Origin: a virus
Lineage: Duplodnaviria; Caudoviricetes
Length of the DNA stretch: 64,000 nucleotides
Virus record (IMG/VR): IMGVR_UViG_3300033463_000061
Span: 27,112-91,111 of that record
Reading direction: 5' to 3' (one strand)
Shown here: piece after piece, positions 33,603 through 52,672 of the stretch
How positions within the stretch are numbered: the stretch's first letter is position 1
Layout of the letters: the number at the start of each line of letters is the position of its first letter
The notes under the pieces: generated by a model
What the model was told of the DNA's origin: nothing
Seen by the model: only the letters and a program-made list of their open reading frames with translations
The model's database searches: none
Program-made: the position numbers and the translations under genes

Positions 33603-35418
33603 GCACGACACGACAGTAGGCTTGCCACCGGGTTCACCCGTGGGTCGAAAGCAGTCAGGATCATCGCGAGGAGATGCTCCATCTTTCTCTTCCGATGATC
33701 TGGTCTGTATTGGGGACTATCTTGCCTCTGACATAGGCAAGAAAGAGTGCAAGCTTCTCCGGCGAGGCGACATGCTTCCGTACCTCTTCAAGTTGCGCGG
33801 ACAGCCGATGTCGCTAAACGACCATATACAGTTTCACGCCATGTACTCAGACGAGTACGTCGCCGACACGGTATTCGTGTGCGGACGACAGGTCGGAAAA
33901 TCGCTGAACCTGTCACGTGTCGAAGTCCTGGACGCGCTCAGCGCAAACGAACTCCAGCTCCTGTACGTCGCCCCGCTCCAGTCGCAGTCGCAGCGCTATT
34001 CGACGCTGTACCTGAACGAGGCGATCAAGTCATGCGAACTCGCCAGGATAAACCAGATGAAGGCCCTCGAAGGGCTCTGGTCCGACTCGAAGATACTGAC
34101 GGCCGTCGGCCACCAGTCGTTCGCCAACGGCTCTGGCATCCAGCTGACATACGCCAAGACCTCCCCGGACCGCGCCCGCGGCATCTTCGCAGACATAATC
34201 GACTTCGACGAGGTCCAGGACCAGCTCACGGACAACATCCCGATCATCTCCCAGTCGACTAAGTCCTCCAAGTGGGGAATCCGCCGGTTCACGGGCACGG
34301 CCAAGACCGTCGACAACACGATCGAGGGGCTGTGGCGGAACTCGTCCCAGTGCGAGTGGGTGATGAAGTGCGACCACTGCGGGGCGTGGAACATACCGAA
34401 CATGGACGGACGCGTCCTCGACATGATCCAGGCCGACGGCATGCACTGCGTCGAGTGCGGCGGCAAGCTTAACGTCAGGAACGGTGAGTGGGTCCCCAAC
34501 AAACAGGACAAGATGAAGACGTTCCGCGGGTACCATATCCCGCAGGTCATCCTCCCGTTCCATACCGAGAACATGGACAACTGGGGCAAGATCGTTCGAG
34601 ACGTGATGACGCTCCCGATCCCCGTGATTCTCCAGGAAATACTAGGAATCAGCTGCTCGCAGGGGCAGCGCATCATCGACCAGAACACCATCGACAGGCA
34701 GTCGGTCCTCCCAGACGTACGCCAGCTCCAGGATCTGCTGCACAACTACGCCTTTACAGTCGGAGGACTCGACTGGGGCGGTGCGGAACAGGTCTCGTTC
34801 ACGGTGCACACAATCCTAGGCGTGTGCTACGACGGAACCATCGACGTCCTCTGGGCCCGCCGCTACCAGGGATTCGATCCGGACGAGATGCTCACGGAGA
34901 TCGCGAAGACCCATTTCTTCTACGGCTGCCGCGCGCTGGCGGCCGACTACGGCATGGGCTTTGACAAGAATGTCATGCTAGAGTCGCGGTTCGGAATCCC
35001 GGTCATCCAGATCCAGCTATGCAAGCAGAACGCGCTGATGAACTTCAGCCCTGCGCTCGGGCACCCGCGCTGGATGGTCGACAAGACCACCGCACTTGAC
35101 CTCATGTTCATGGGAATCAAGTACGGACGCATGCGCTTCCCGCCGAAAGAGCAGTTCGAGAGCTTCACGAAGGACCTGCTGTCCCCGTACGAAGAGGTCG
35201 TCGACCACGGAGAACTCGCCCACAGGCGGTTCGTCCGCGACCCGTCGCGTCCTGACGACTTCGCGATGGCCCTTTGCTTCGGGACGATGGTCGCCCTGAA
35301 GATGAGGCACTCCAAGCTGACGGACATCATACCGAAAGGTGCGCTCGCGACGAAAGTCGGAAGGCCTGAATTTACCATTCTCGACCCGGACGAGATCATG
35401 CGTGCGCTCAACAGCTGA
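33598..35418 (+). CDS. terL: Terminase large subunit (GpA-like, with Zn-binding insert)
   Basis: GRQVGKS Walker A, DFDEVQD Walker B, GTAKT, CDHC/CVEC, GLDWGG nuclease, PDDF; exact start uncertain. Confidence 0.9.
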   Translation: MKHDTTVGLPPGSPVGRKQSGSSRGDAPSFSSDDLVCIGDYLASDIGKKECKLLRRGDMLPYLFKLRGQPMSLNDHIQFHAMYSDEYVADTVFVCGRQVGKSLNLSRVEVLDALSANELQLLYVAPLQSQSQRYSTLYLNEAIKSCELARINQMKALEGLWSDSKILTAVGHQSFANGSGIQLTYAKTSPDRARGIFADIIDFDEVQDQLTDNIPIISQSTKSSKWGIRRFTGTAKTVDNTIEGLWRNSSQCEWVMKCDHCGAWNIPNMDGRVLDMIQADGMHCVECGGKLNVRNGEWVPNKQDKMKTFRGYHIPQVILPFHTENMDNWGKIVRDVMTLPIPVILQEILGISCSQGQRIIDQNTIDRQSVLPDVRQLQDLLHNYAFTVGGLDWGGAEQVSFTVHTILGVCYDGTIDVLWARRYQGFDPDEMLTEIAKTHFFYGCRALAADYGMGFDKNVMLESRFGIPVIQIQLCKQNALMNFSPALGHPRWMVDKTTALDLMFMGIKYGRMRFPPKEQFESFTKDLLSPYEEVVDHGELAHRRFVRDPSRPDDFAMALCFGTMVALKMRHSKLTDIIPKGALATKVGRPEFTILDPDEIMRALNS

Positions 35419-35710: not shown

Positions 35711-35962
35711 TTAGGGCGAAACCGCTGCGGCTGCGGCCTTTATGACGCGCCACTCGGCGCGCCACTCAGGCACGGACTCCACGTCGGCCCAAAATTTGGC
35801 CTTGTCGGACTCGGGCCAGGCCTCTACCGCCTCAAGGCGCGCCTTGCAGCGCTCCGCAAAGGCGGTCGGCCTGGCCCTAATCTGCATGAGGATTACTCCT
35901 GCAGCAACGCCCAACACCGCGCCTCCTAGGAAGACGCAGGCCTGGCAAACGAATTTCTCCAT
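35711..35962 (-). CDS. Small membrane-anchored protein
   Basis: N-terminal hydrophobic helix; TATAAT at 36002-36007 upstream. Confidence 0.55.
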   Translation of the reverse strand: MEKFVCQACVFLGGAVLGVAAGVILMQIRARPTAFAERCKARLEAVEAWPESDKAKFWADVESVPEWRAEWRVIKAAAAAVSP

Positions 35963-36064
35963 TTTTACCCCTTTCTGGGGTGCTAAAGGCACCCGTTATG
36001 TATTATAACCAGAAAACTGGCGTATTTTACGCTGTTTTTCGGCCAAAACGGGTGCAAATCATGC

Positions 36065-37525
36065 TTACGGGACCTTTTGCGGCAGTGTAGCCCTGTAGTA
36101 GTTCGTAAAGCTGCCGGTCTGCGTGCTTGACGCACCTGCGAGCGCGTCAATAAGGTCATTTAGCGTGTGTTTAATGCTTATAAGCTCTCCCTCGATACTC
36201 GACATGCGCGTTACAAGCTCCGAGCGATTCGCAGTGACGGTCTGTGACAGGGTAGCCACGCGCGTAGCGGCGAGGCTGTCAGCCTGCGAGACTGCGTTTG
36301 ATATGATTCCGCTGCGTGCCGCGGATATACGGCTGTCAGCGATCGTGCGCGCCCTCGCATCTATCGCAGCCTCGATCCCGCCCTCTAGCACAGAAAACCG
36401 GCTGCCGAGCGCGTCAATGTCAGCCCTCAGCGCGGAGTCGGCAGAGGTATATCCGGACTGCACCCCAGAGATCGCCTGATTGACGGAGGCGAGCGCGTTA
36501 CTTGCAGTTGCCTCATGCGCCTGCAGCTCGTCTCGTAAGCCGTCTATGGCGAGCGCCACCGTCGACAGCTGCCCTCCCCAGGATGTGCCCACAGACGCTA
36601 TCTGCGCCGCAAGCGAAGCCTGCGCGTTGTTCAGCATGTTCGACAGCACGATGTCGCCTGACGCCCGTGCATAGGCCTCTGTGTTGATCCTGGAGGACAG
36701 CGACGAGTCCGCGGAAGACAGGGCCTGCAGCGCCGTGCCTATGTCATTCGTGGCTCCGTCTATGTCCGACACGTACGCCACGACATGCGTTACGCCGCCG
36801 TCGGTGACAAGCGCACGGCCGCCGGACAGTATGACCTGGTCGCCGGAGACAGGATCCACCAGCGCCTCCGCCTTCGGGACCGTATCATACCCGGCATAGA
36901 CGTCCTCGTTGACAAGCGATGAGATGCCGACGACCGACCCGAGGTCAAGCCGTGTCACGGTAACCATGGTCGAACTGCCCTCGAGTCGCTCGACCGTGGC
37001 ACTGGACATCTTGATGTTGACCCTGCCGCCCGACACCGACAAAGTCCCTATGTCAACGCCGACGAGCGCAAGGCATGTGTCGTATGACGCGCCAGATACG
37101 ACAACTGACAGCGATTCGATGCGCGACATCGGGCCGAAGCCGGCAATAGTCACCGTCCGGCCAGCATCGAGCGGCAAGGTTCCGCTGTACGTGGCCGGGG
37201 CAAGCAGGACTGCGGAGTTCGGCGCCATGTTCGCGAATGCGTACGTCAGGCTCCTGAAGGGGTACTGCGGCGAGCCGTTGCCCTGCACGCGTGCGTTGCC
37301 GGCGGCGTAGTACAGGTTCGATATCGGCTGGGAGGCCCAGTCTGCGACCGGAGGGAGCAGGGATGCGTCAAGAACGCCGTCCGCCTTCGTCCTCGGAAGC
37401 ATGCGGGCGTACGCAGGAGACCCGCCGCGCTCCGTTACGCCGTCTGCCGCAATACGGTCGAGATCTCCGTATGCGCCTGCGGCGCAAACTGAAACAACTG
37501 CTGCCAGCAACATCCGGAAGTGCAT
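36065..37525 (-). CDS. Signal-peptide-bearing fibre/adhesin-like protein (beta-helix-like N-half, coiled-coil C-half)
   Basis: MHFRMLLAAVVSVCAAGAYG; ADGVLDASLLP; GNGSPQYPFRSL..VLLAPATY; heptad-rich C-terminus. Confidence 0.7.
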   Translation of the reverse strand: MHFRMLLAAVVSVCAAGAYGDLDRIAADGVTERGGSPAYARMLPRTKADGVLDASLLPPVADWASQPISNLYYAAGNARVQGNGSPQYPFRSLTYAFANMAPNSAVLLAPATYSGTLPLDAGRTVTIAGFGPMSRIESLSVVVSGASYDTCLALVGVDIGTLSVSGGRVNIKMSSATVERLEGSSTMVTVTRLDLGSVVGISSLVNEDVYAGYDTVPKAEALVDPVSGDQVILSGGRALVTDGGVTHVVAYVSDIDGATNDIGTALQALSSADSSLSSRINTEAYARASGDIVLSNMLNNAQASLAAQIASVGTSWGGQLSTVALAIDGLRDELQAHEATASNALASVNQAISGVQSGYTSADSALRADIDALGSRFSVLEGGIEAAIDARARTIADSRISAARSGIISNAVSQADSLAATRVATLSQTVTANRSELVTRMSSIEGELISIKHTLNDLIDALAGASSTQTGSFTNYYRATLPQKVP

Positions 37526-37526
37526 G

Positions 37527-37913
37527 TCATTCCTCCGCCTGGACTACTACGGTATCCCCCGGTCGTACGCCATGGGCCGCGAGAAACCCGAGGGGCGTTT
37601 CGATCGCGTGTGCAGCCTTGACGGCGTTGGCCGCCGACGGGGAGTAGTGGAAGACGCCTCCCTTGTCGACAGGCATCGCGACCGTCTCGAGCACCTCGCC
37701 CTCCTTTGTGACGAACGTGAGGTCGAGCGGGAAGTTGACGTCCTTCATCCAGTAAATGCCGGCTTTGTCGAAGAACATGCCGCGCCCGGCGTCTAGGGAT
37801 GCTCGCTTAGACAGGCCCGCAGCTCTTGTTTCCGGGGTATCGGCGATTTCGAGCACGGCGGATGCCTTGACGGCTCCGTCCTGCCCGGTGAACGCAACTC
37901 TCACTTCGTCCAT
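37527..37913 (-). CDS. DUF192 domain protein
   Basis: EIADTPETRAAGLS.R..L..GRGMFF...YWMKDVNFPLD...AIETPLG...GVRPGD. Confidence 0.88.
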   Translation of the reverse strand: MDEVRVAFTGQDGAVKASAVLEIADTPETRAAGLSKRASLDAGRGMFFDKAGIYWMKDVNFPLDLTFVTKEGEVLETVAMPVDKGGVFHYSPSAANAVKAAHAIETPLGFLAAHGVRPGDTVVVQAEE

Positions 37914-37924
37914 GTGTCCTCCTT

Positions 37925-38045
37925 TGTAAAATTAAGGCGGCTTTCGGGGTCTCCGCGCGCCGGGCGGGGGAATTGCCCGGGGCCGCCGTGCGCGTCAATC
38001 AGGTTTCGGCGCCGCAAATGCGCCGAGGTGTCGTAACCCGCCCCT
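37925..38045 (-). ncRNA. Structured 5' leader or small RNA upstream of DUF192 (unclassified)
   Basis: Starts ~7 nt after TGATATACT; stems GGGCGGG/CCCGCCC, TCGGCGC/GCGCCGA, CCGGGC/GCCCGG, GGCGGC/GCCGCC, then TTAATTTT and the RBS. Confidence 0.45.
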
Positions 38046-38051
38046 GAGGAA

Positions 38052-38060
38052 AGTATATCA
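38052..38060 (-). promoter_or_regulatory. Extended -10 TGATATACT overlapping the upstream stop codon
   Basis: TGn-TATACT directly before the structured element. Confidence 0.55.
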
Positions 38061-38654
38061 TTTCTGCTCCGTTTGTGCCATAGCGGCCACCAGCCCGCGC
38101 AGCACCGTTACGCCGGCGTACGCCTTGAGGGCCTTGTATGCTTCGACGTCATAATCGAGGACTGTGAGCTTCGTCGGCTTGAACGTCGCGAGGAAGCCGG
38201 CCATGAAGCCGTCGAGCGCCGAACACATGAGCTCCCTGACAACACGGACTTGCGGGAACTTGATCTCGAGAAGGGCGTAGGCGTAGACCACTACGGCGAA
38301 GGCCGCGATCACGACGGCGCCTGTGAGCGGCTTGACCTTTCCGGCTGCAACAAGTGCGTCAACGTGGCGCTTCGCCGCGCCTATGAACGTCTCCGACAGC
38401 CCCTCGCCGGGGCCTGGCGTGGTGTTCATCACCGCCGTGGCGACAGACACGAGCAGATCCCGCGTGTCCTGCGAGAGGCTGCACTCGTTGAGCACAAGGC
38501 CGGCGGCTCCGCCGATCCCCTTGCCAGCCAGATAGACCGCCTCCATGCCGGGGATCGACTTGCAGCCGGCCGCCTCTGTTGCCACGACGGCTACAACGGC
38601 CGTGCCGGCAGCGCCGGCGAGCAGGTCACGCCTCGTAACGAGCTCGTCTTTCAT
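38058..38654 (-). CDS. Putative Tat-exported lipoprotein with an internal hydrophobic helix
   Basis: TRRDLL twin-Arg motif, h-region, AAGC lipobox; GAVVIAAFAVVVYAYALL. Confidence 0.7.
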   Translation of the reverse strand: MKDELVTRRDLLAGAAGTAVVAVVATEAAGCKSIPGMEAVYLAGKGIGGAAGLVLNECSLSQDTRDLLVSVATAVMNTTPGPGEGLSETFIGAAKRHVDALVAAGKVKPLTGAVVIAAFAVVVYAYALLEIKFPQVRVVRELMCSALDGFMAGFLATFKPTKLTVLDYDVEAYKALKAYAGVTVLRGLVAAMAQTEQK

Positions 38655-39271
38655 CACGCAGTCCTCTTCGCGGTCCACGTCCCGTACACAGCAGCTGTAT
38701 CAACTACACGGCTCTGTCCCCAGATCCGGGTAGGCGAAACGTGCCCGTATTCGGCGCAGCCGCAGCCGATCTGCCCGGCGACCTGGCCCTTCAGCCGCTT
38801 GCCGTTCGAGTACCCGCGGCCTGCGAGGACCAGGAGGAGCGAGTTGTCCTCGGTAGGCGCAGGCCCTATCGCGTATGACGGCATGGCTTCGATCGGAAGC
38901 ACAACGGAGCGGGTCGTGAACTTGCCAGTCCTGTTATTCCCGATTCCGTGCCAGAGAACGGTGCCGTTGGGCTCGACGCCGTATGTGACGCGAGTCCCGT
39001 TCACCTTGTGCGTCGCGTTCTCAAGGCAGCAGAAGACGACCTCGGGCTCCGCGTCCCGTACGTACGATACGACAAACTCGCCCGAGATCGTCTGCATCTG
39101 GTACTTGCGGTAGCCGCGGGACGACATGTTGTCGTAGATGCGCGGGACGTAAAGCCGCATCTTCAACGACCACCGTTCGCGCCCTATGTACGAGGTGTCC
39201 GCCTTCAGTGCCCTGGCAACACTGACTACGGGGATCGCCATAAGCAGCTCCCGCCTAGTTAGTTCAGCCAT
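38654..39271 (-). CDS. Putative Tat-signal beta-rich exported protein
   Basis: MAELTRRELLMAIPVVSVARALKA; GQIGCGC; GTWTAKR; GGAGG RBS. Confidence 0.7.
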   Translation of the reverse strand: MAELTRRELLMAIPVVSVARALKADTSYIGRERWSLKMRLYVPRIYDNMSSRGYRKYQMQTISGEFVVSYVRDAEPEVVFCCLENATHKVNGTRVTYGVEPNGTVLWHGIGNNRTGKFTTRSVVLPIEAMPSYAIGPAPTEDNSLLLVLAGRGYSNGKRLKGQVAGQIGCGCAEYGHVSPTRIWGQSRVVDTAAVYGTWTAKRTA

Positions 39272-39303
39272 TGCCGGCCTCCTTCCTTTTACGTCGGCGC
39301 AGG

Positions 39304-39669
39304 TCAGAGGCCGACGGCCTTGGCCATTGCGGCGACTTCGCCCTGGGCGGCGCCTGCAACTGCCATTGGCGACACGCCATCGTCGCCGGCGCCGTCCTTG
39401 ACTCTGTCTGAGTGCATTGCAGCTTTCTCGAGATTCGTCGCGCACATGGCGCGGAACACCTCGACACGGGCGGCATGCTGCACGTTGATGAACTTGAACG
39501 TGGACAAGATCGACAGGATCGCGCCGATGAGATTCGGCGCGTACGTCGCGATGCCCTCGTTCTGCTCCGGCGTGATCACGCCGAAGGCAAGCAGGAGCCC
39601 GGCAACGCTCGTGACGACCGTAAGCCAGAACTCGGCCTTTGCAAAAACGGATGTTGTTTTGCTTTCCAT
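39304..39669 (-). CDS. Holin-like two-TM protein
   Basis: SVFAKAEFWLTVV...LLLAFGVITPEQ...LIGAILSIL holin-like pattern. Confidence 0.6.
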   Translation of the reverse strand: MESKTTSVFAKAEFWLTVVTSVAGLLLAFGVITPEQNEGIATYAPNLIGAILSILSTFKFINVQHAARVEVFRAMCATNLEKAAMHSDRVKDGAGDDGVSPMAVAGAAQGEVAAMAKAVGL

Positions 39670-39689
39670 TGGTTTACCTCCTGTGTTTG

Positions 39690-39965
39690 CTAGACGTGCA
39701 TCGTCGCTGACTTTGCAAGTATGTGCTTACGCTGGCGGGAGCGCTCCTTGCCCGCGTCAATCAACGCCTTCAGGGCCCCGGGGTATGCGGGCTGGACTTG
39801 CGCAGGCGCGGGCGCGGGCTTGTTAGGCGGCGCAGACGCGTTGCCGAGGTAGTTCGTGTTGGCGGGGTTTGCCGCGGTCCCTCGGTCAAGGTACGCCGGC
39901 GCTGCCGCCGCCTTCTCGAGCGCCAGCCAGCGGCGCATGCTTCTCACGGCTGCTGCCTTTGTCAT
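39690..39965 (-). CDS. Small Ala/Pro-rich protein with KxA motifs
   Basis: KAA, EKAA, KSA; ATGA overlap. Confidence 0.6.
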   Translation of the reverse strand: MTKAAAVRSMRRWLALEKAAAAPAYLDRGTAANPANTNYLGNASAPPNKPAPAPAQVQPAYPGALKALIDAGKERSRQRKHILAKSATMHV

Positions 39966-40660
39966 CTTGTCGCCTCCGTGACGGCGTTCGCACTGTCTTT
40001 CTGCTCAAGCGCGTCACCGACGTCCTCGCCGTCTTCGAGGAGGTTGTCGACGCGCTTGAGGTCTGGGATCCTGTTGAACTGGACCTCCAGGTCGAGCATC
40101 TGCTCCGTAAGGTACTTCTCGATATTAGCGGAGTTCCCGTCGGCCGCCGCGCCGGAGAGCGCTGACCTGATCCTGCCCTCGTCCGGCCTGCGCTCGAACA
40201 TCTCGGCGAATACGGGGGGAAGGTCACCGGAGCGCGGGTCGAACCCGTCGGCCTCGAGCTGCTGGCGCATATACTGCTGGATCGAGTACGAGAATGGCAG
40301 CACATCCCGGTTCATCGCAACCTCCGCGACAGCCCACGCAGCCTCCTCCGACGTGACAGGGTCGAACACGAGGAACGACGGCGACCCCGACGCGAGCGTG
40401 TTGCACACGTTCAGGAACGCGTCGAGCCGCTTGAAGAAGGCGTCGGAGCCCATCACGACCTGCATGGCGCACCAGCGGTCCATCGCCGGCGTGCAGACCT
40501 CGGCCTGGAAGTCGGCCGCAGCCTCCATCGCGCAAGTCACCGGGTCCCAGTCGTAGACCTGCTGGCCGTACTGGTCGAGCATTATGGCGTGCACGACCGT
40601 CGCCAGGGTCTGAGGCGACTCGAGGGCGAGCTTGCGGGGGTATGTCATCTTGTCGTTCAT
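39962..40660 (-). CDS. Acidic hypothetical protein (probably virion-associated); leaderless start
   Basis: ATG lies 6 nt after TGGTATAAT. Confidence 0.75.
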   Translation of the reverse strand: MNDKMTYPRKLALESPQTLATVVHAIMLDQYGQQVYDWDPVTCAMEAAADFQAEVCTPAMDRWCAMQVVMGSDAFFKRLDAFLNVCNTLASGSPSFLVFDPVTSEEAAWAVAEVAMNRDVLPFSYSIQQYMRQQLEADGFDPRSGDLPPVFAEMFERRPDEGRIRSALSGAAADGNSANIEKYLTEQMLDLEVQFNRIPDLKRVDNLLEDGEDVGDALEQKDSANAVTEATR

Positions 40661-40666
40661 GCCGGT

Positions 40667-40675
40667 ATTATACCA
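40667..40675 (-). promoter_or_regulatory. Extended -10 TGGTATAAT (leaderless promoter; contains the upstream TAA stop)
   Basis: Consensus sequence and spacing to the ATG. Confidence 0.6.
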
Positions 40676-42236
40676 CATTGTTTGCCTTAGCGCCACCCTG
40701 CGCCTTGGCCTTCTCCGCGGTCAGGTCCTTGACGAACCTGCGGTAGCCGTGCGGCTTGTCGTATACCCTCTCGGTGAACCCGGAGTTGGCGGCGGCCCGC
40801 GCACTGGCCTCGTTCTCCCTGAGGAGGGACCATATTATGCGCTTTACCTCGGTACGCCTGTCTTTCTTCCGTCTCGCCCTCGCAACAGCTGCCTCTATGG
40901 CTTCGTCCACCATAGACCTTGCCACGCGGCGCCCTCTTGCCGCGTCGGACACGGCAAGCGTGAGATTCTGGGAGGACCTGGGGCTCCCGTCCTCGTACAG
41001 TCCGTACAAGTCGGCAAACCCTATAGGAACGCCGCCGTCGTACGCGACGCGCCTGGCCGTGTACGGCACGTCCTTGTAGAAGGTCCTTCCGGGGGTGACG
41101 AAGTTCTTTTCCTCCGGCGTCAGGGCGTCATAGACCTTTTTCACGTCCTTGTAGGGGCCTTCCCGCAGTTCGATGCCGGCCTTCGCGGATGCCGACTTTA
41201 CGTGTTCAAGCCATCCGCTCGGCTGCCGCATGTTCATGTGGACCTTGTGGACGACGTTGGTGCCCTTCACCCTGTACCCGTGGTAGCCCACCTCGTCACC
41301 GCGTGCGGGCTCGACCCGCACCCCCAGCGCGGTGTTGTTCGAGATTACGACCCTGCGCCCGTCTTTCAGGCGTATGACGATCTGGTCATGCCCCTTCGTC
41401 TTGTCAGGCGTATATGCCATGACCCTGCCGCGGCCGGACACGTACTCCTCCGCGGACCTGGACCTGGCCTTGTCGCCCTCTGCGGCCTTGACGGCCTGCC
41501 ACACGCCGTTGACAGCCCGCAGCCTGTTCTTCATGAAATCGCTATGGCTTTGTGTTGCCTTGTTAATAGCCGCCTCGCTGTACGCCTTGTTCCCGCGGAT
41601 CGTGTGGGCTGGCGTGAAGACCCGCCTGTGCAGCCAGTCGGCATACTGCTCCTTCGTGTACTTCGCACCAGGCGCCATGTACGTCTTGTACCCGAACCGA
41701 GACGGCATGTACTTGTCGACGAAGTAGTCCACCTGGCTGTCGGCCGAGTCCGTCAGTTTGCTCTCGGCGAGCCACTTCCTGTATGCGGCGAGCGACGCGC
41801 CGGTGTACTGCGGGATGCCGTAGCCGCCCCCGCCGCCTATCTGCTTCGTCGCATGGTCGAACCTTCCGCCCGTCTCGCGGTTGAAATTGGCGAGGATCGC
41901 GGCCTCGAGGTCCGGGTTGTTCAGCTTCGAGTGCAGTCGGGACGCAACGTGGTTGATGCGCGACTCCGCTGTCGTGGGTAAGACCGGAGCGGCCGGCGTT
42001 GTGGGGGGCACTGGCGCCGGCCGCTCCGGAAGACGAAGTCTCTGCCCGATCGACAGGCGGTCGGGGTTCTTGAGGTCGTTGAGGCGTGCGAGCTCACGCC
42101 ATGTCGTGCCGTTTCTGGCGGCTATCGACGACAGGGTGTCGCCGCGCACTACGCTGTAGCGCGCCCCCGGCACCGCCGTAGCGACGGCGGCGGCCAGCTT
42201 CAGTAACGCCCTGCGATCTAGTTGTCTCTGTGCCAT
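40668..42236 (-). CDS. Multidomain protein: LysM + phage-tail-lysozyme-like + DUF3465-like + GNAT acetyltransferase
   Basis: YSVVRGDTLSSIA..L.IGQRLRLP; AILANFNRETGG..GYGIPQYT; H..I.L.DG..V..N..L..GD.V...HKVH..GWL; AVSDAARGRRVA..NEASARAA..GF. Confidence 0.8.
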   Translation of the reverse strand: MAQRQLDRRALLKLAAAVATAVPGARYSVVRGDTLSSIAARNGTTWRELARLNDLKNPDRLSIGQRLRLPERPAPVPPTTPAAPVLPTTAESRINHVASRLHSKLNNPDLEAAILANFNRETGGRFDHATKQIGGGGGYGIPQYTGASLAAYRKWLAESKLTDSADSQVDYFVDKYMPSRFGYKTYMAPGAKYTKEQYADWLHRRVFTPAHTIRGNKAYSEAAINKATQSHSDFMKNRLRAVNGVWQAVKAAEGDKARSRSAEEYVSGRGRVMAYTPDKTKGHDQIVIRLKDGRRVVISNNTALGVRVEPARGDEVGYHGYRVKGTNVVHKVHMNMRQPSGWLEHVKSASAKAGIELREGPYKDVKKVYDALTPEEKNFVTPGRTFYKDVPYTARRVAYDGGVPIGFADLYGLYEDGSPRSSQNLTLAVSDAARGRRVARSMVDEAIEAAVARARRKKDRRTEVKRIIWSLLRENEASARAAANSGFTERVYDKPHGYRRFVKDLTAEKAKAQGGAKANNVV

Positions 42237-42248
42237 GTCGGTACCACG

Positions 42249-44381
42249 TCACACTGTTGCCCTGCGCACCGCACCATACGGCCGCTGGACCTGTCTTTTG
42301 TTGCGTGCCTCGTTGAGCAGCCTCATCTTGTACTTGGTCGGAAGCCCCTTGAAGTATGGATTGCGCCCGTCGAGAATCGCATCGGCCTGCTCTGGCGTGT
42401 ACTCGCCGTTCGGACCGGCGCCCTTCCCGGGCCACGCCCCCTTCAGGGCGCGGAGTGCGTTCATCTCGGCTGCCTGCTCGCGCGGGGTGTAGTGGTAGCT
42501 CTTCGTGTCCGGAAGCCCCTCCTCGCGTTGTATCTGCTCGATCTTCCCGATATACCCGGGAAGCTTTATCGTAAACGGGTGGAATGCCTCGTGCGTCATA
42601 AGCCCGTCGAGCCACTTCCCGGTCCTGCGGTAGGTCTTGTGGGCCGTTGCCGCCGTCGCCGGCAGCGATACCCACGACTCAGCGCCGTTCCGCGTGTGCG
42701 CAACCGCCGACCCGACGCTCGGCACTTCGTTTACGAACGGAAGCTCCGCGAGGTCCGCAGCGGCCGTCTGTACGCGCTTGAGCCCGACAGCCTGGTCTCC
42801 GTTCCCGGCCCGCCGCTGGAACTCCGGCATATTGGCCAGCGTGTTAACGGCGTCCACGGCGTACTGCCCCGATGCCTGCACGGCCGGAACGGCCTTGGCA
42901 GAGACGAGCTGCGCCTTTGTCGTGTCGGGGGTCGCGTTCCTGAGCAGTTTCAGCCCAGACGAGGCGGCGTTGAACCCGCCACGTCCGTACGTGCCCTCCG
43001 GCTGTGTGGCCTTGTCGTACCCGACGAGCTTGAATCCGACGCGGGGGACTGCGTTCGACACGGCTCCGCCGTCCGCCTTTTTGTTGAGCTGCGCGGAGAC
43101 GTACTCCGCGAATGTCTCCTCGCGCTTCTTGCGGGCAGGAACCGTGTCAAGGTAGACGGTATTGAACTTGTCTTTCCTGGCCTGCGCGAGCATCTGGCGC
43201 ACGAGGTCGCGCGCAAGGCCCTTTCTGTACACCTCATGCCCGAGCTCGTGCGCGATGATCCTTCTGCGGAACTCGCCGGGCTTGACATCGAGACCCCACC
43301 GCCGTATGACAGCCCGGGCATTCGGGTTGAGGTAGACGACGTTGTCCTTGCCCCAGCTGCCGCCTGTCTCGTCGTCCGCGAGCTCGTACGACCGTTTGCC
43401 GTTGCTGTACCTGGGGTGCTTCGACATCGCCAGCCGCATGTGCGACAGGTCGATGCCATACCTGTCCTTGTAGGCCCTGACCATGTTGGCGAAATCGTCT
43501 TTCGCAGCCGCCGCCTTGTACAGCAGCTCGTACCTGTTCGGCACCGCTCGTCCAGCCATGGCCTTCGCCTCCTCCGACGTCTTTTTCAGTCCATAGTCCC
43601 TGGCGACGCCGCCCCAGTCGCGCGGTCCGCCCATGCGAGGCCCGCCGTAGAACCCGGGAAGGCCGTACGGCTCCTGCCAGTCGAACCTTATGCCTGTTTC
43701 GCTCCCCTCGGGGACGAAAAGGTCAAATGACCCGCGGCTGAACTGCTTGCTGGTAGTCAGACGCGGGTCGACTCCGGCAGTGGCGTTTCGCATTACGTCG
43801 TAGTACCTGCCTGTCCCGGATGCACCGGTTATCTCCCTGACAGGGACGACCGTGTTCACGTGGTTCGACACGCGCCACGGAATGTATATCGGCTTTCCGG
43901 CCGCATTCTTGCCGGCGAACAGGCGCCCGTACATCGACCTGAACGGGAAAATGCCGTTCTCGAACGCCTGCAGCTCTGCCGGAGTGGCCACGAACGGGCC
44001 GCCGTCAAGACTGCGGAGGGGTGCGGCGTTCACCTGCACCACGCCCGCGGCGCGAAGCGCGTCCGGCGACGCGGACCAGCCGGTCCTGCCGAGCCTGTCG
44101 ACAATGAACGACGGGTTGTGGAGCAGCGGAATGTTCTTGTCGACGAGAAGGTCTGCGGTCGACTTCCCGTTGTTGAGCACGCGGTTCAGCCAAACGGCGT
44201 ATTTTGACGGATCGGCTGTTTTAGCCGTGCCTCCGAACAGTTTTCCAGCCGCACTAACGTCAGCCCCGGCCATCCGCAGCCCGGGGACGGTAAGGTACCT
44301 CCCTGCGCCCTTGATCTTGGAGAGACGCTCAAGCAACGGGCCGATGGCCTTCAGCGTGACTGCGTTAGAGCGCTTCTGCAT
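42249..44381 (-). CDS. Multidomain protein with two zincin metallopeptidase-like domains
   Basis: IIAHELGH...EETFAE and LMTHEAFH...PREQAAE. Confidence 0.75.
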   Translation of the reverse strand: MQKRSNAVTLKAIGPLLERLSKIKGAGRYLTVPGLRMAGADVSAAGKLFGGTAKTADPSKYAVWLNRVLNNGKSTADLLVDKNIPLLHNPSFIVDRLGRTGWSASPDALRAAGVVQVNAAPLRSLDGGPFVATPAELQAFENGIFPFRSMYGRLFAGKNAAGKPIYIPWRVSNHVNTVVPVREITGASGTGRYYDVMRNATAGVDPRLTTSKQFSRGSFDLFVPEGSETGIRFDWQEPYGLPGFYGGPRMGGPRDWGGVARDYGLKKTSEEAKAMAGRAVPNRYELLYKAAAAKDDFANMVRAYKDRYGIDLSHMRLAMSKHPRYSNGKRSYELADDETGGSWGKDNVVYLNPNARAVIRRWGLDVKPGEFRRRIIAHELGHEVYRKGLARDLVRQMLAQARKDKFNTVYLDTVPARKKREETFAEYVSAQLNKKADGGAVSNAVPRVGFKLVGYDKATQPEGTYGRGGFNAASSGLKLLRNATPDTTKAQLVSAKAVPAVQASGQYAVDAVNTLANMPEFQRRAGNGDQAVGLKRVQTAAADLAELPFVNEVPSVGSAVAHTRNGAESWVSLPATAATAHKTYRRTGKWLDGLMTHEAFHPFTIKLPGYIGKIEQIQREEGLPDTKSYHYTPREQAAEMNALRALKGAWPGKGAGPNGEYTPEQADAILDGRNPYFKGLPTKYKMRLLNEARNKRQVQRPYGAVRRATV

Positions 44382-44404
44382 GGCTGCCCCCGCGTAGCTC
44401 GTCG

Positions 44405-45415
44405 TTACAGGCGCCTCAACGCGCTGCTGAGCTCGTTCAGGTCCTCTGCCGACTTGGACGCGAGTGCCTCGCCGAGCTTCTTCGGGTCGATTGCGCCTGC
44501 CTCCTTGACGGATTCGGCGAACCCCTCGCCAAGCACGTCGTCGAACACCTCGTCCGGAAGCTCCGCGAGCTTGGACAGGCTGAGAGCGTCTCCACCGATC
44601 TCGATGACGTCGTTCACGATCGCCTCGGCCTGCTTGACGTCCATGTCAAACAGGAAATCCTCTGGGGCGCTCATGTCCTTGCCGTAGCGGCCGCGCCAGT
44701 TCTCGATGACGTCCACGTCCTCCACGAGCTCGGCGATCTTGTCCGTTGCGCCGTCAAGGGCCTCCGCGCCCTTCTCCGCCACGTGTTCGGCCATCTTGGC
44801 GAGCGCGAGCCCGGTGTCCGCGTCGTGGCAGAGCTCCGCCCGAATGGTGAGCTCGTTGATCACGTTGTCAGGACGCGCGACGCCGTGGCCGGCCGTCTTG
44901 CGGATCCCGTCCGGGACGTCGACGCCGAACTCAGACGCCTTCTTGAGGATGTTCTTCGCGATCTCGTTGCGCATCGGGAACGGGTACTTGAACTTGTTGT
45001 CCTCGAAGTACTCTGCCGCGAGCTTGACGCCATGTGCGTCAAACATCGGATACTTCCGCTCGCCGTTCCTTACCCAGCCGTAGTCGTCGTCGGAAGCCGT
45101 CTTGACCTCTTCCGTGTGCGTGAGCACCTTCGCGATGTCGTCGGCTATGCCGAACATCTCGGCGGCCTTCTGCAGGTTGTACTCCACGTCAGCGCGGGTA
45201 TAGCGGTAGTCCTCGTCGGACGCGTGCTTCGCGAAATACCGGGCGGACGCCCATGTTTCCTCGCGGCTGTTGCACGGGAGCTCCTGCCGCGCTGCGTCGG
45301 CGTAGAACGCGCGGCGTGACACCGCCGGCGACTCCTCGGGGAAGCTCGCGGACTTGACGTATGCGGGTGCGCCCTCGTCGGACGTGCATGATCTCCATTC
45401 GCTGTAATCTACCAT
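44405..45415 (-). CDS. KxA-rich putative head/scaffold-associated protein with two DUF6582-like repeats
   Basis: LPC..EETWASARYF..LQKAAEMFGI and YPM..HGVKLAAEYF..ILKKASEFGV. Confidence 0.7.
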   Translation of the reverse strand: MVDYSEWRSCTSDEGAPAYVKSASFPEESPAVSRRAFYADAARQELPCNSREETWASARYFAKHASDEDYRYTRADVEYNLQKAAEMFGIADDIAKVLTHTEEVKTASDDDYGWVRNGERKYPMFDAHGVKLAAEYFEDNKFKYPFPMRNEIAKNILKKASEFGVDVPDGIRKTAGHGVARPDNVINELTIRAELCHDADTGLALAKMAEHVAEKGAEALDGATDKIAELVEDVDVIENWRGRYGKDMSAPEDFLFDMDVKQAEAIVNDVIEIGGDALSLSKLAELPDEVFDDVLGEGFAESVKEAGAIDPKKLGEALASKSAEDLNELSSALRRL

Positions 45416-48633: not shown

Positions 48634-49638
48634 ATGGAACGCGAAATAGCAGACAACGAGAGGATCCCGATGCTCGAGCCGTTCACGGTGAAGAAGACCG
48701 TGTCTGCGCTGTCCGAGACCGAGGACTACAACCACCGCATGCTCAACATCCCCGAGATGTGGAAGCGCAGCAAGGGGGCGGGCGTGAAGGTGGCCGTGCT
48801 CGACACCGGATGCCCGCAGCACCTCGACCTCAAGGTCGCGGGCTTCAAGGACTTCTCCGACTCCCCTACGCCGTACGACGTCGCCTGCGGCCACTCGACG
48901 CACGTCTGCGGAATCATCGCGGCGCTCGCAAACGGAATCGGCGTCCGCGGCATCGCGCCGGACTGCGAGCTGTACTGCGGCAAGGTCCTGAACGACGAGG
49001 GCGGCGGCACGATCTCCTCGATCGCCGACGGCATCCGCTGGGCCGTCGACGAGGTCGGGGCTGACGTGATCAACATGAGCCTCGGCTGCCCTCCCTCCGG
49101 GGCGTGGAGCCCCACGCTCAGAAGCGCGTGCAGCTACGCGCACAAAAAGGGCGTAGTGCTCTGCTGCGCGGCCGGAAACGACGCAGGCGCGGTCAACGCC
49201 CCGGCGAACCTCGACACGACGATAGCCGTCGCCGCGGTCGACCGCGACAAGGACGTCGCGTACTTCACCTGCCACGGCTCGGAGGTGGACTTCGCGGCCG
49301 GCGGCGTGGACGTCTTCTCCACCTGGCTCGACAACCAGTACGCGAAGCTCTCCGGCACCTCGATGGCGACGCCTGTCATCACCGGCGCGGTCGCGCTCGT
49401 GATCGGCGCCGCGAAAGCCGAGGGCGTAAAGCTCACGCCCGACCAGGTCTACCAGAAGCTCGTCGGCATATCGGTCGACGTCGACAAGCCCGGCAAGGAC
49501 GAGTACACCGGCAACGGCATACCCGTCTTCACCTCACAGTACGAGCCGGAGCCCGAGGAAAAGCCCGAGCCCGCCAAGGGCGACAGCTGGTGGGTGTCGC
49601 TGCTGAAGTGGGTGGCAGGGCTGTTCCGCAAGTCGTAA
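48634..49638 (+). CDS. S8 subtilisin-family serine protease
   Basis: AVLDTG, HSTHVCG, AAGN, SGTSMATP catalytic motifs. Confidence 0.95.
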   Translation: MEREIADNERIPMLEPFTVKKTVSALSETEDYNHRMLNIPEMWKRSKGAGVKVAVLDTGCPQHLDLKVAGFKDFSDSPTPYDVACGHSTHVCGIIAALANGIGVRGIAPDCELYCGKVLNDEGGGTISSIADGIRWAVDEVGADVINMSLGCPPSGAWSPTLRSACSYAHKKGVVLCCAAGNDAGAVNAPANLDTTIAVAAVDRDKDVAYFTCHGSEVDFAAGGVDVFSTWLDNQYAKLSGTSMATPVITGAVALVIGAAKAEGVKLTPDQVYQKLVGISVDVDKPGKDEYTGNGIPVFTSQYEPEPEEKPEPAKGDSWWVSLLKWVAGLFRKS

Positions 49639-49653
49639 GACAGGAGGCCCCGC

Positions 49654-50616
49654 ATGGCTGCCGTTGAAAACATAGAGTGGCTCAACCAGAACCTGCTCCG
49701 TGCGTACCCGCTCCGGGAGGATGCGGACTTAACCCCCAACCTCCCCAGCGGCGCAAAGGCAGACGGGCTACGCCTGCCGACCTGCCTCGTCACGGACTTC
49801 TCATTCACGCTCGCGTTCGACGCCGTGAACGGCACAGTCCCGTCGCTCACCGGCCTGTCGCACTCGAGCGACGGGTTCTCGGTGGAGATATCGCTCGGCA
49901 GCACGGTGTTGACGTCGGCGGCCGCGAAGATATCAGAGCACACGATCAACCAGGCGTACAGGCTCGTCGGACAGGGCGACAACGCCGACTGCGGCGGGTG
50001 GATCGTGCTCGGAGACCTCGTACGCGCCGCCGCGGAGCTGCCGGAGGGCGTATACCGCTTCGCGCCGAACCAGGTGCCGTTCGAGGTCTCTACGCTCAGG
50101 ATGGCGCCGCGCGGCGTCAGGAGCATAACGGCTGTCGGAAAGTACGGGCTGAAGACCTATGCCCCGCTGTACGGCAACGTCCGCATCATCGCAGGCTCGG
50201 ACATGACTGTGCGGAACGTCGAGGGCGACAACGCCATCTGGCTGCAGGCCGAGTCCAAGACCGGCTACGAGCGCACGGAGCCCTGTGACTGCGGAACCGG
50301 GTCGACCAGAAGCGTCAAGCGCATCAACGGCATGGACGTCGACGAGGTCACAATAGTCGGAGACGGGACATGCGTATCCGTCGTAGACGACACGAGCAAC
50401 AACGTCGTGAAGATCTCCGACAAGTGCTCGACGCCGTGCTGCGGATGCGCAGAGCTCAACTTCGTCGAATCCGCGATCGCGACGATCAACAAGTCACTAG
50501 AGACCCTAAACAACTACGCCGAGAACCTCCGCACCAGGATCGCGGAGCTCAAGTCGAACGAAGCCGCCACGGCGGCCGCAGTCGCCGCATACCCGGGCGT
50601 AGCATCACCGTCATGA
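49654..50616 (+). CDS. Putative virion protein, 'N..R.YP' paralog 1
   Basis: EWLNQNLLRAYPL; VKRING; PCCGC; C-terminal coiled coil. Confidence 0.75.
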   Translation: MAAVENIEWLNQNLLRAYPLREDADLTPNLPSGAKADGLRLPTCLVTDFSFTLAFDAVNGTVPSLTGLSHSSDGFSVEISLGSTVLTSAAAKISEHTINQAYRLVGQGDNADCGGWIVLGDLVRAAAELPEGVYRFAPNQVPFEVSTLRMAPRGVRSITAVGKYGLKTYAPLYGNVRIIAGSDMTVRNVEGDNAIWLQAESKTGYERTEPCDCGTGSTRSVKRINGMDVDEVTIVGDGTCVSVVDDTSNNVVKISDKCSTPCCGCAELNFVESAIATINKSLETLNNYAENLRTRIAELKSNEAATAAAVAAYPGVASPS

Positions 50617-51986: not shown

Positions 51987-52672
51987 TATCGCCGACGAAC
52001 ACCCTCTCGCCGGAGTGGCAGAACGAGAATGCGCTCAGGGCGTATCCCATAGCGGACGACTCCCCGGCCGCAAGTACGGTCCCGACGTGGCTCCTCACCG
52101 ACCTCAGAGTCACATGCCCGCCCGGATACGCCAAGGTATACATCAGCAGTGTCTATGTCTCCGACACGCTCGTTTCAGTAGCCATCAGCGGCATGGCGGG
52201 CGGCACAGTGGTCGGACTCCTCTCGCGCACGGTAACGCGCGACGAGCTCGAGCCGTTCCGCGCCTACTCGATGGACCGCCTGTCCGCCGAAGCGTCCGGA
52301 ACAGTCGCGTTTGGCGAAATCCCGGCCGACGCCACCCCGTTCCGCATGACATTCTCGGCAGACGAGGCACCCATAGCGGGAGCGGCGATAGTCCGTGCAA
52401 GCGTACCCGGAGTGTCAAGGCTCACGGACAGAAGCCACGGCGTGTCCGCGGCCGGGATAATAGACCTGTCCGGCAACAACGAGTTCAGGACGTCCGTCGA
52501 TGCGGCCGACCCGCAGACGATCGTATTCACCCTGTCTGACGTCTACCGCGACATAGCCACGTCGGTGTGCGACGCGACGCCGTCCAAAGACGCCTGCGGG
52601 GAGACCCCGGTGCGGTCGATAAACGGCGTGACGCCAGACGAGAACGGCACAATAACGCTGAGGTTCAGGTAA
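51983..52672 (+). CDS. Putative virion protein, paralog 3
   Basis: EWQNENALRAYPI; VRSINGVTPDENG. Confidence 0.75.
   Translation: MISPTNTLSPEWQNENALRAYPIADDSPAASTVPTWLLTDLRVTCPPGYAKVYISSVYVSDTLVSVAISGMAGGTVVGLLSRTVTRDELEPFRAYSMDRLSAEASGTVAFGEIPADATPFRMTFSADEAPIAGAAIVRASVPGVSRLTDRSHGVSAAGIIDLSGNNEFRTSVDAADPQTIVFTLSDVYRDIATSVCDATPSKDACGETPVRSINGVTPDENGTITLRFR

Follow-up and report, generated by a model that had tools for sequence, protein, structure and literature searches.

Introduction

The prohead proteases of phages T4, phiKZ and SPN3US act at short degenerate motifs, namely L/I-x-E for T4 gp21, S/A/G-x-E for phiKZ gp175 and A-x-E for SPN3US gp245. The last of these cuts after A-x-E, with Val favoured at P4 and Ser at P1', is self-cutting, and has substrates that carry several copies of the motif in their propeptides (PMC10052503). 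Among the herpesvirus proteases, PrV assemblin was found to end in Ala in vivo (PMC4498786). Also relevant here are the polyvalent proteins that phages and conjugative elements encode, described by Iyer, Burroughs, Anand, de Souza and Aravind in 2017 (PMC5512222), a study of which we draw on a part only.

The window analysed here comprises 64,000 nucleotides of a virus of the Caudoviricetes (IMG/VR record IMGVR_UViG_3300033463_000061, positions 27,112 to 91,111) and lies on a 91-kb contig of an uncultured phage group (~190-200 kb) known from metagenomic contigs only. An initial annotation had proposed that the motif K-x-A (Lys with Ala at offset +2) marks a set of probable head proteins as well as the domain boundaries of neighbouring polyproteins, which would be packaged in the prohead and cut there; overall, this interpretation is partly supported by the results below.

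K-x-A content of the contig and the g125 protein

K-x-A enrichment was assessed gene by gene, using a binomial test, for the 141 genes called on the 91-kb contig. No enrichment was seen over the entire contig (187 of 1525 Lys, or 12.3%, against 10.7% Ala), and a single gene, g125 (44405..45415, minus strand), reached significance. It is predicted to encode a conserved, acidic, helical protein of 336 amino acids in which 14 of the 23 Lys (K21, 63, 83, 105, 131, 158, 173, 207, 215, 226, 261, 282, 304 and 321) are in K-x-A, while 3.2 would be expected from its Ala content of 14% (P = 2.6e-7). The coordinates and counts of the initial annotation were exact, including the order of the 14 tripeptides of g125. 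For the 91-amino-acid protein g121 (39690..39965, minus strand), which is rich in Ala and Pro and has the leader MTKAAAVRSMRRWLALEKAAAAP, the count of four in seven Lys was likewise correct but did not amount to enrichment (25% Ala, P = 0.07), and neither g124 (8 of 46 Lys, P = 0.2) nor g123 (3 of 35 Lys) was enriched. The supposed set of head proteins in the window therefore shrinks to one clearly enriched protein, the remainder of that claim being the placement of the motif at the joints of g123 and g124.

A homologue search with g125 returned 60 matches, and all 37 homologues that were aligned (29-89% identity) carry 11-18 K-x-A compared with 2.3-4.7 expected. This density is kept down to 29% identity, and the abundance of the motif is not an effect of composition. 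K226-x-A228, K261-x-A263 and K282-x-A284 are near-invariant among the aligned homologues. The AF2 model of g125 (pLDDT 87.5) is helical, with two DUF6582-like repeats, and had no fold match in the PDB. Whether the motif lies in linkers, as cleavage sites might, received a divided answer: K105 of g125 and K217, which follows the protease domain of the head protease described below, are in disordered linkers, but the majority of g125 sites are inside confidently modelled helices or at their termini. The conserved Ala could serve helix packing, which weighs against the reading favoured here. The g125 protein is proposed to be a multi-site substrate of the prohead protease and, as such, would most likely be core- or scaffold-like and degraded.

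Enrichment in the head module of related phages

Neither a head module nor a gp21-like protease was found on the 91-kb contig. For this reason enrichment was tested genome-wide on a complete 199-kb relative (G001), whose g125 homologue is 83% identical, and the link between g125 and a head protease rests on relatives. Nine G001 genes had P <0.005, five of which fall in a single block of 11 genes, h221-231 (permutation P = 5e-4). In this block 32% of Lys are in K-x-A, compared with 11-13% in tail, replication and other regions (tail 0.11, replication 0.12, subtilase operon 0.13, all near the Ala frequency). Only offset +2 is raised (0.32, with other offsets at 0.11-0.18), R-x-A and K-x-S are not raised in the block, and K-x-A ranks first of 896 residue-pair patterns scanned for the G001 head set. 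With the head set taken as h221-231, h243 and h244, a choice made after the data were seen, 97 of 297 Lys are in the motif compared with 270 of 2453 elsewhere (odds ratio 3.9, P = 3e-20).

Enrichment was strongest in the protease with the gp21 fold, in a scaffold-like protein and in one that resembles a portal. That the block is the head module follows from the gp21/assemblin fold of h225, the match of h221 to HK97-fold capsid clusters (0.97-0.98) and the scaffold-like character (acidic, 26% Ala) of h224, which sits between the two. The expectation that head genes would be enriched and replication genes would not thus held in G001, where the tail genes also showed no enrichment, but not on the contig itself, which lacks the module. 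Enrichment was also seen in a distant relative of 51% GC (L004), in its portal-like (9/45), h227-like (12/32) and g125-like (11/19) proteins, and there the g125 homologue is located no more than 6 kb from head genes.

The N-terminal domain of h225 matches T4 gp21 (5jbl; Z 10.2, rmsd 2.9, 134 amino acids) as well as the assemblins of VZV (Z 8.1) and HCMV (Z 6.3), and a weak match to phrog_18299, head maturation protease, was also obtained. At its C-terminus this protease has a long, K-x-A-rich helical extension of ~270 amino acids. All 36 homologues (37-80% identity) carry 12-20 K-x-A, with 2.6-5.0 expected. Sites 231, 324 and 387 are kept in place in 5-8 sequences only, but a K-x-A is present within a few residues in 31-36 of the 36 homologues; short linear motifs, and not features of a fold, typically show such turnover with density maintained. 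K217-V-A-S, immediately after the protease domain, is near-invariant (35 of 36 sequences). In its extended form the motif has the consensus [L/F]-[V/A]-K-x-A-[E>S,G,A].

Motif placement in the multi-domain proteins

The g123 gene (40668..42236, minus strand; 522 amino acids) encodes a fusion of LysM, phage tail-type lysozyme, DUF3465 and GNAT. Pfam confirmed the domain order given in the initial annotation (LysM 27-70, Phage_lysozyme2, DUF3465 259-346, GNAT 394-488), and by these boundaries K250-A-A (AVKAAE; 41481..41489, minus strand) and K347-S-A (HVKSAS; 41190..41198, minus strand) do lie between domains, the first separating lysozyme from DUF3465 and the second DUF3465 from GNAT. At the former, homology to g123 stops at residue 249-252 in 20 proteins, several homologues terminating there; at the latter, P0083, P0085, P0086 and P0087 have HVKKAAS, HVKAAS or MKSAS after DUF3465, followed by unrelated domains. 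A further site, K13-L-A (42192..42200, minus strand), is in the leader string RRALLKLAAA, which is similar to the leader of g121 and to those of the G001 proteins h230 and h243; the g121 leader itself resembles these two N-termini, and no homologue of g121 was found in G001. The modules of g123 are recombined in homologues on contigs of 150-196 kb.

No match to g124 (42249..44381, minus strand; 710 amino acids) was found in Pfam or PHROG. Its three modules, domain 1, a HELGH zincin and a HEAFH zincin-like domain, are separated by homology breaks at residues ~264-289 and ~434-441, and the boundaries at ~289 and ~434 are confirmed by the points at which other proteins begin and cease to be homologous. 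The joint of domain 1 and zincin 1 holds K289-A-A (43509..43517, minus strand), zincin homology beginning at residue 290-295 in >100 matches. K434-K-A (43074..43082, minus strand) joins zincin 1 to domain 3, and in many homologues the same QLNKKA and a following S, E, Q or A lead into unrelated domains. The leader site K24-G-A (44304..44312, minus strand) directly precedes the conserved GRYLTVPGL; in P0082, which fuses a lysozyme to domain 1, this leader string forms an internal linker, and the L002 homologue has conserved it. Besides the lack of overall enrichment in g123 and g124, two observations count against the favoured reading: the closest g124 homologue (L002, 639 amino acids) has K-Q-S or a Pro/Ala linker at its joints, without K-x-A, and some internal K-x-A of g124 are not conserved.

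Related phages were found to exchange domains at or beside K-x-A, one of the checks proposed in the initial annotation. The g123 and g124 homologues, 159 in all, have 181 internal module edges, and K-x-A occurs within 6 residues of 70 of these (39%), compared with 13 (7%) expected. The motif was present at 10/10 edges of DUF3465, 11/14 of GNAT and 6/7 of domain 1, and at 6/6 and 27/55 of the internal C-terminal edges of DUF3465 and the zincin module, respectively; the latter module occurs alone (140-170 amino acids) or within proteins of up to 1971 amino acids. The position of K-x-A at the joints between shuffled modules suggests that these multi-domain proteins are cut into separate enzymes, and g123 and g124 are proposed as putative cargo proteins of the polyvalent type.

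The conserved acidic protein g122 (39962..40678, minus strand; 238 amino acids) has a homologue directly after that of g125 in L004, while variable genes separate the two in G000, L002 and L003. From this gene order, g122 appears to be the partner of g125 and the right-hand border of a variable cargo locus.

Discussion

The reading we favour, with moderate confidence, is that the capsid-maturation (prohead) protease of this phage group recognises K-x-A, with g125 and the polyvalent cargo proteins among its substrates. Inside the prohead, a gp21/assemblin-fold protease would act on itself, on the scaffold and on further head-assembly proteins, trimming or degrading them, with cleavage probably after the Ala. 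All three of g123, g124 and g125 would enter the head or be ejected into the host; g125, as a multi-site substrate, would be degraded, and g123 and g124, the leaders and inter-domain linkers of which share the site, would yield separate enzymes (LysM-lysozyme, DUF3465, GNAT, domain 1 and two zincins).

We judge it quite improbable that the site is instead cut by the zincin (HExxH) modules, in cis or in trans, or by the S8 subtilase g128 (48634..49638, plus strand; Pfam Peptidase_S8 5e-49, phrog_3677). No module is commoner in the protein network than the zincin, KKA plus S, E or A is often its immediate neighbour on one side or the other, homologues of 30-40% identity included, and KKA-type linkers border it in far more distant proteins, which a zincin acting as processing enzyme would fit equally well; autoproteolysis by such metallopeptidase domains is predicted in the part of the polyvalent-protein study used here (PMC5512222). 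Many junction-bearing proteins, P0086 and P0087 among them, nevertheless have no zincin, and the joint linker is the motif of the head module, which points to the prohead protease and not the zincin. Many subtilases would be suited to a hydrophobic P4 together with a P1 Ala, and g128 is conserved in both close relatives (G001 and G002); its nearest isolate relatives, however, are subtilases of large Bacillus phages whose annotation does not go beyond protease or S8 family peptidase, and its own three K-x-A are all in the catalytic core. Against either enzyme, peak enrichment in a gp21-fold protease and in scaffold-like and portal-like proteins is the signature of a prohead protease. No more probable, in our estimation, is that K-x-A is an uncut binding or modification motif of head-assembly proteins, such as a helix-start motif for scaffold or core packing or a site of Lys modification, the joints being a common linker inherited with the modules. 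The position of most g125 sites at helix starts or ends in a well-folded model, the invariance of several of its Ala and the GNAT module (Lys/amine acetyltransferase superfamily) within g123 would agree with this, but site turnover at maintained density, the strict +2 spacing, the use of Lys and not Arg, the disordered-linker sites K217 and K105, and proteins that end exactly where others have the motif would not. A short motif shared by protease, scaffold and portal is, moreover, the known signature of prohead-protease substrates (PMC10052503).

For g123 alone, it is unlikely, if less so, that the protein is the endolysin of a lysis cassette, exported by the twin-arginine or Sec route and never packaged, LLKLAA then representing the RRxFLK consensus and a hydrophobic region and not a capsid-targeting or cleavage element. 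RRALLK fits the Tat consensus. At 1-3 kb from g123 lie genes for a holin-like protein with two transmembrane segments (g120, 39304-39669) and for a protein resembling Tat lipoproteins (g118, TRRDLL...AAGC), and L002 has a stand-alone 239-amino-acid LysM-lysozyme with an RRMLLK leader. The equivalent string is, however, internal in P0073, P0074, P0076 and P0077, after a GNAT or zincin domain, RR is absent in P0066, P0067, P0068 and P0071, and just 4-9 Ala precede LysM in P0068 and the short L002 form, too few for the hydrophobic region of a signal peptide. RRxxLxKxA leaders also occur on h230 and h243, near the G001 portal gene, the Pfam lysozyme family matched is of the tail/virion-associated type, and endolysins are not typically fused to DUF3465, GNAT or zincins.

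The release and maturation sites of herpesvirus assemblins follow V/L/I-x-A|S, and to our knowledge Lys is not found at P3 as a rule, unlike in K-x-A. The phage protease shares the assemblin fold, the order of protease, linker with the near-invariant ...K-V-A-S and helical domain, and Ala followed by Ser or Glu; in herpesvirus protease-scaffold fusions, the release site is similar to K217-V-A-S. It belongs, however, to a phage, and has dozens of sites in place of two or three. The group shares with T4, phiKZ and SPN3US a head-module protease of the gp21/assemblin fold, enrichment of a degenerate three-residue motif in protease, scaffold, portal and internal or ejection proteins, and multiple motif copies per propeptide, and its N-terminal leaders are reminiscent of T4 capsid-targeting sequences (PMC10052503). 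It differs in its putative cleavage motif, K-x-A instead of x-x-Glu (P1 would be Ala, not Glu), in the C-terminal extension of its protease, and in K-x-A between enzymatic domains. Likeness to polyvalent proteins lies in the combination of zincin-like metallopeptidase, lysozyme, GNAT and other domains, in extreme shuffling between related elements, and in delivery with DNA and proteolytic domain release, both of which are predicted for them in the part of PMC5512222 used here. That part yielded no such linker motif, whereas the present proteins have a standard K-x-A linker, the same motif that is enriched in head assembly. The favoured reading would combine the processing theme of T4, phiKZ and SPN3US with polyvalent proteins.

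Gene layout of the window

The 91-kb contig from which the window was taken is approximately 51% complete and has a GC content of 64%; 141 genes were called on it on the basis of GC at third codon positions, start codons and ribosome-binding sites. Replication genes (encoding PolA with a UDG domain, helicases, a primase and an SbcCD-like pair) occupy positions 1-33000 on the minus strand, followed by the large terminase gene on the plus strand (33772-35418) and by a minus-strand cluster (35711-45415) which holds genes g121 to g125. To the right of this cluster lies a plus-strand operon encoding a 922 amino acid protein, an S8 subtilase (48634-49638) and a paralogue array, and baseplate genes (Baseplate_J match) are found at the right end. 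No capsid, portal or prohead-protease gene was found on the contig, which stops short of the head module. The family A DNA polymerase (12163-14970, minus strand) carries an N-terminal domain of the uracil-DNA-glycosylase superfamily (Pfam UDG, 1e-16).

The region and g125 were searched against 50,697 isolate phage genomes (blastn and tblastn) and no match was found. Similarly, there was no match in PHROGs, Pfam or NCBIfam for g121, g122, g124, g125, g126 or most of the head-module proteins.

K-x-A enrichment in g125

Gene g125 (44405-45415, minus strand) is predicted to encode a protein of 336 amino acids, and its coordinates, start codon and list of K-x-A tripeptides in the initial annotation were all exact. 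Alanine was found at position +2 after 14 of its 23 lysines compared to 3.2 expected (P =2.6e-7), and none of the other 140 genes reached significance. The initial annotation had grouped g125 with three other motif-marked proteins; an excess of the motif was seen in g125 but not in the 91 amino acid g121 (39690-39965), g123 (40668-42236) or g124 (42249-44381), all on the minus strand, none of which is enriched overall. For g121 the reported count (4 of 7 lysines) was correct, but with 25% alanine in the protein it corresponds to P =0.07; the counts were 8/46 lysines in g124 (P =0.2) and 3/35 in g123. As these counts are not significant, enrichment in the window amounts to one protein, g125, and for g123 and g124 the claim concerns the position of the motif and not its frequency.

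Sixty homologues of g125 were identified, all of them metagenomic, the longest of their contigs measuring 190-199 kb. When 37 of these were aligned (29-89% identity), every sequence contained 11-18 K-x-A motifs compared to 2.3-4.7 expected, and K226-x-A228, K261-x-A263, K282-x-A284 and [K/R]173-x-A175 are near-invariant. The confident AF2 model of g125 (pLDDT 87.5) consists of helices and includes two DUF6582-like repeats; the motifs fall mostly in helices or at helix ends, with K105 in the sole disordered linker. The match to DUF6582 (PF20223; residues 117-168) scored 17.1 bits, below the gathering cut-off of 27.3, the two repeats being recognised by eye, and several g125 homologues carry a precomputed PF20223 match; a literature search for DUF6582 turned up no paper. 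Foldseek comparison of the model with the PDB gave nothing under E=0.5, while matches in BFVD were to uncharacterised viral proteins only and those in the ESM Atlas to unnamed viral clusters only.

The head module of a complete relative

A relative collinear with the window (IMGVR_UViG_3300032030_002802, here G001; 199,078 bp, CheckV 100% complete, 270 genes called) encodes a g125 homologue with 83% identity. The initial annotation had predicted that K-x-A would be enriched genome-wide in head proteins and absent from replication genes, and in G001 the motif was indeed enriched in head-assembly proteins and not in replication genes. An excess at P <0.005 was found in nine genes, five of which cluster in a single block of 11 genes at 147.7-158.6 kb (permutation P =5e-4), and this block is the head module. 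Within it 79 of 246 lysines are in K-x-A (0.32), compared to 0.11 in the tail region, 0.12 in the replication region and 0.11 in the rest; the rate across the tail, subtilase-operon and replication regions (0.11-0.13) equals the alanine frequency. When 896 residue-pair patterns were scanned, K-x-A was by far the most over-represented in the head set (97/297 lysines vs 270/2453 elsewhere, P =3e-20), a set comprising the 11-gene block, h243 and h244 that was picked after the data had been seen, and P values overstate the evidence because homologous sequences are not independent. The extended logo of the head-set sites is [L/F]-[V/A]-K-x-A-[E>S,G,A], and K-x-A occurs in the first 37 residues of 9/11 head-block proteins vs 52/259 other G001 proteins.

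Gene h225 of this block (G001 149931-151370) encodes the candidate protease. The AF2 model of its N-terminal domain was closest to T4 gp21 (5jbl; Z 10.2, rmsd 2.9 over 134 amino acids), which Foldseek likewise ranked first, the next-best fold matches being herpesvirus assemblins (Z 8.1 and 6.3). His54 and Ser147 are invariant across 36 homologues. The predicted fold points to a gp21/assemblin-type serine protease encoded within the head module, as would characterise a prohead-protease system. In the same block, language-model similarity (score 0.97-0.98) identifies h221 as a capsid protein of the HK97 fold, h224, located between h221 and h225, is acidic, scaffold-like and 26% alanine with 20 K-x-A motifs, and h231 is a portal-like protein of 815 amino acids with 11. 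Neither phmmer nor profile searches of PDB sequences gave a match to the protease and capsid candidates. Enrichment of the motif in protease, scaffold, portal and internal proteins, and not in tail or replication proteins, is the distribution that prohead-protease substrates would be expected to show. Some h225 homologues (P0300, P0314 and P0329; 829-839 amino acids) contain Hint_2 (PF13403), which suggests that an intein interrupts these prohead protease genes.

Each of 36 aligned protease homologues (37-80% identity) carries 12-20 K-x-A motifs. Sites 231, 324 and 387 keep their exact position in only 5-8 sequences, yet a K-x-A is found nearby in 31-36 of the 36. Immediately behind the protease domain, a disordered linker that leads into a helical C-terminal domain contains the near-invariant K217-V-A-S.

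The motif is also enriched in L004, a relative with 51% GC and a g125 homologue of approximately 31% identity, where the portal-like (9/45 lysines), h227-like (12/32) and g125-like (11/19) proteins are all enriched; GC content consequently does not explain the motif. In L004 the g125 homologue lies at most 6 kb from head genes, and a g122 homologue follows it directly. In the G001 head block only offset +2 is raised (0.32 vs 0.11-0.18 at other offsets), and neither R-x-A nor K-x-S is raised. A compositional or helical-periodicity origin of K-x-A was rejected, given that the excess is confined to offset +2 and to lysine and persists at 51% GC. K-x-A is a genuine feature of the head-assembly proteins in this phage group, and is conserved among them.

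Head-module proteins h226, h230 and h244 (G001 151382-152320, 155266-156129 and 173547-175136; loci L017 and L018) are Gly/Ala-rich with glycine-zipper-like hydrophobic segments, and by their sequence may be membrane-inserting ejection proteins. An N-terminal leader is common to h230, h243 and g121 of the window.

Module joints in g123 and g124

The domain order LysM-lysozyme, DUF3465, GNAT reported for g123 was as described, with K250-A-A and K347-S-A between the Pfam domains. Both zincin-like motifs (HELGH and HEAFH) are present in g124; the first zincin-like module has more than 140 homologues, either stand-alone or in proteins of up to 1971 amino acids, and is unrecognised by Pfam, PHROGs and NCBIfam.

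In homologues of g123 single modules occur in new combinations. The LysM-lysozyme is stand-alone or placed behind GNAT or zincin; the lysozyme is fused with domain 1 or domain 3 of g124; DUF3465 is N-terminal, in the middle or C-terminal in unrelated proteins; and GNAT follows DUF3008-like or zincin modules. Homology breaks at residues 249-252 and 344-355 of g123 and at about 264-289 and 434-441 of g124, and the strings HVKKAAS, HVKAAS, QLNKKA followed by S/E/Q/A, GVKSAAAR and GEKKASFSDKVASVLLKAAAP recur at the joints. Several homologues terminate exactly at positions where others have the motif. Across 159 proteins, K-x-A was at most 6 residues away from 70 of 181 internal module edges compared to 13 expected, including nearly all edges of DUF3465, GNAT and domain 1. 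The proposal that related phages exchange domains exactly at K-x-A was borne out in part: swaps at or next to the motif were seen in homologues, but the joints of the g124 homologue in L002 are K-Q-S or a Pro/Ala linker and have no K-x-A. In P0081, a homologue of the g123 GNAT module, LPEKKA-G links GNAT to a DUF3008-like peptide at the N-terminus, and the same PEKKA string precedes a zincin module in the distant P0219. Other distant zincin proteins contain EKKASA or KKAE.

With unrelated catalytic and binding domains in one polypeptide that are shuffled between relatives (recombined architectures in P0066-P0089, P0127-P0146 and L002; three modules in g124), g123 and g124 share, judged by sequence, this feature of polyvalent proteins. 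The g125-g122 interval differs in each of four relatives: the window has these two proteins, L002 a different pair, G001 a LysM-lysozyme fusion (h185) together with h186 and h187, which lack K-x-A, and in L004 the interval is empty. It is a hypervariable insertion site (window 39962-45415; L002 11067-13712; L003; L004 10001-11734).

Alternative explanations and neighbouring genes

Processing could be carried out not by h225 but by the zincin modules or by the S8 subtilase. The subtilase g128 matches Pfam Peptidase_S8 over the full profile (5.1e-49, positions 1-288/288); a literature search for a prohead protease linked with subtilisin gave no relevant paper. The plus-strand operon (922 amino acid protein, subtilase, 538 amino acid protein) was considered as portal-protease-capsid and dropped, as the subtilase resembles those of large Bacillus phages and the head module is elsewhere in G001. 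K-x-A could also serve in packing or modification rather than in proteolysis; the mostly helical placement of the motif in g125 would fit this, whereas its presence in the K217-V-A-S linker of the protease points away from it. The subtilase is intact, lacks a signal peptide, lies downstream of the 922 amino acid protein and is kept in two close relatives, G001 and G002; among isolates the most similar subtilases (37-40% identity) are those of large Bacillus phages and of one Moorella phage. The paralogue array (49654-54785, plus strand) is kept in G001 but very divergent (44-61% identity, BLAST), and none of its members is K-x-A-enriched.

It was also considered that g123 could be the exported endolysin of a nearby lysis cassette. 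At 38058-39669 (minus strand) g118 has a twin-arginine lipoprotein-like leader (TRRDLL...AAGC) and g120 is holin-like with two hydrophobic segments, and the two may form a lysis cassette beside the LysM-lysozyme gene. The leader of g123 itself consists of RRALLK and 12 weakly hydrophobic residues, and comparison with homologues does not support a Tat signal peptide (RRxFLK, an uncharged hydrophobic region of at least 12 residues and an AxA-type site, conserved in orthologues) on it. Leaders of this type are internal in P0073, P0074, P0076 and P0077, lack RR in P0066, P0067, P0068 and P0071, and in P0068 and L002 comprise merely 4-9 alanines, too short for a signal peptide; the endolysin explanation is weakened accordingly.

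Proposed mechanism and comparison with known systems

The best-supported reading, from sequence statistics and predicted structures in uncultured genomes with the protease and head module seen in relatives, is that K-x-A would be cut by the head protease and would also mark where the domains of modular cargo proteins join. Its pattern, concentrated in protease, scaffold, portal and few others with turnover of sites, resembles a prohead-protease substrate signature, and g125 would be a putative multi-site substrate tied to head assembly. The bond predicted to be cut is that after the Ala of K-x-A, since the herpesvirus fold relatives, by the assemblin consensus, cut after Ala and before Ser; K217-V-A-S in the linker would then correspond to the release site of assemblin. 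The assemblin of PrV has a C-terminal Ala in vivo (PMC4498786).

Proteins g123 and g124 would belong to the polyvalent class (PMC5512222), with standard cleavable leaders and linkers. The RRxxLxKxAA leaders on g123, g121, h230 and h243 may have a role like T4 capsid targeting, which is the weakest step of the scheme. More tentatively, and with some doubt, this group of large uncultured phages may make plug-and-play polyproteins, in which unrelated modules, among them lysozyme, GNAT, zincins and OB-fold, pass between phages with a standard K-x-A leader or linker and are cut in the head by the maturation protease into injected effectors.

If true, a gp21-fold enzyme reading K-x-A would widen the known specificities of prohead proteases and bring the phage enzymes nearer to herpesvirus assemblins, which cut between Ala and Ser. 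The question of polyvalent-protein processing dates from 2017, and the joints described here carry a motif like that of the head-module signature. A standard cleavable linker would explain the free swapping of effector domains, and would allow the head cargo of uncultured phages to be predicted from sequence alone; plug-and-play polyproteins, if real, would represent a polyprotein strategy in a dsDNA phage and would supply the enzyme hitherto missing from accounts of polyvalent-protein processing.

The SPN3US protease recognises A-x-E, with Val at P4 and Ser at P1', and is itself among its substrates, while propeptides in that phage contain several copies of the motif (PMC10052503). T4, phiKZ and SPN3US share with the present group a short degenerate motif concentrated in protease, scaffold and portal, whereas their prohead proteases, of known specificity, cut after Glu and the motif here is K-x-A. 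The proposed system would be a variant of known themes, prohead processing and polyvalent proteins.
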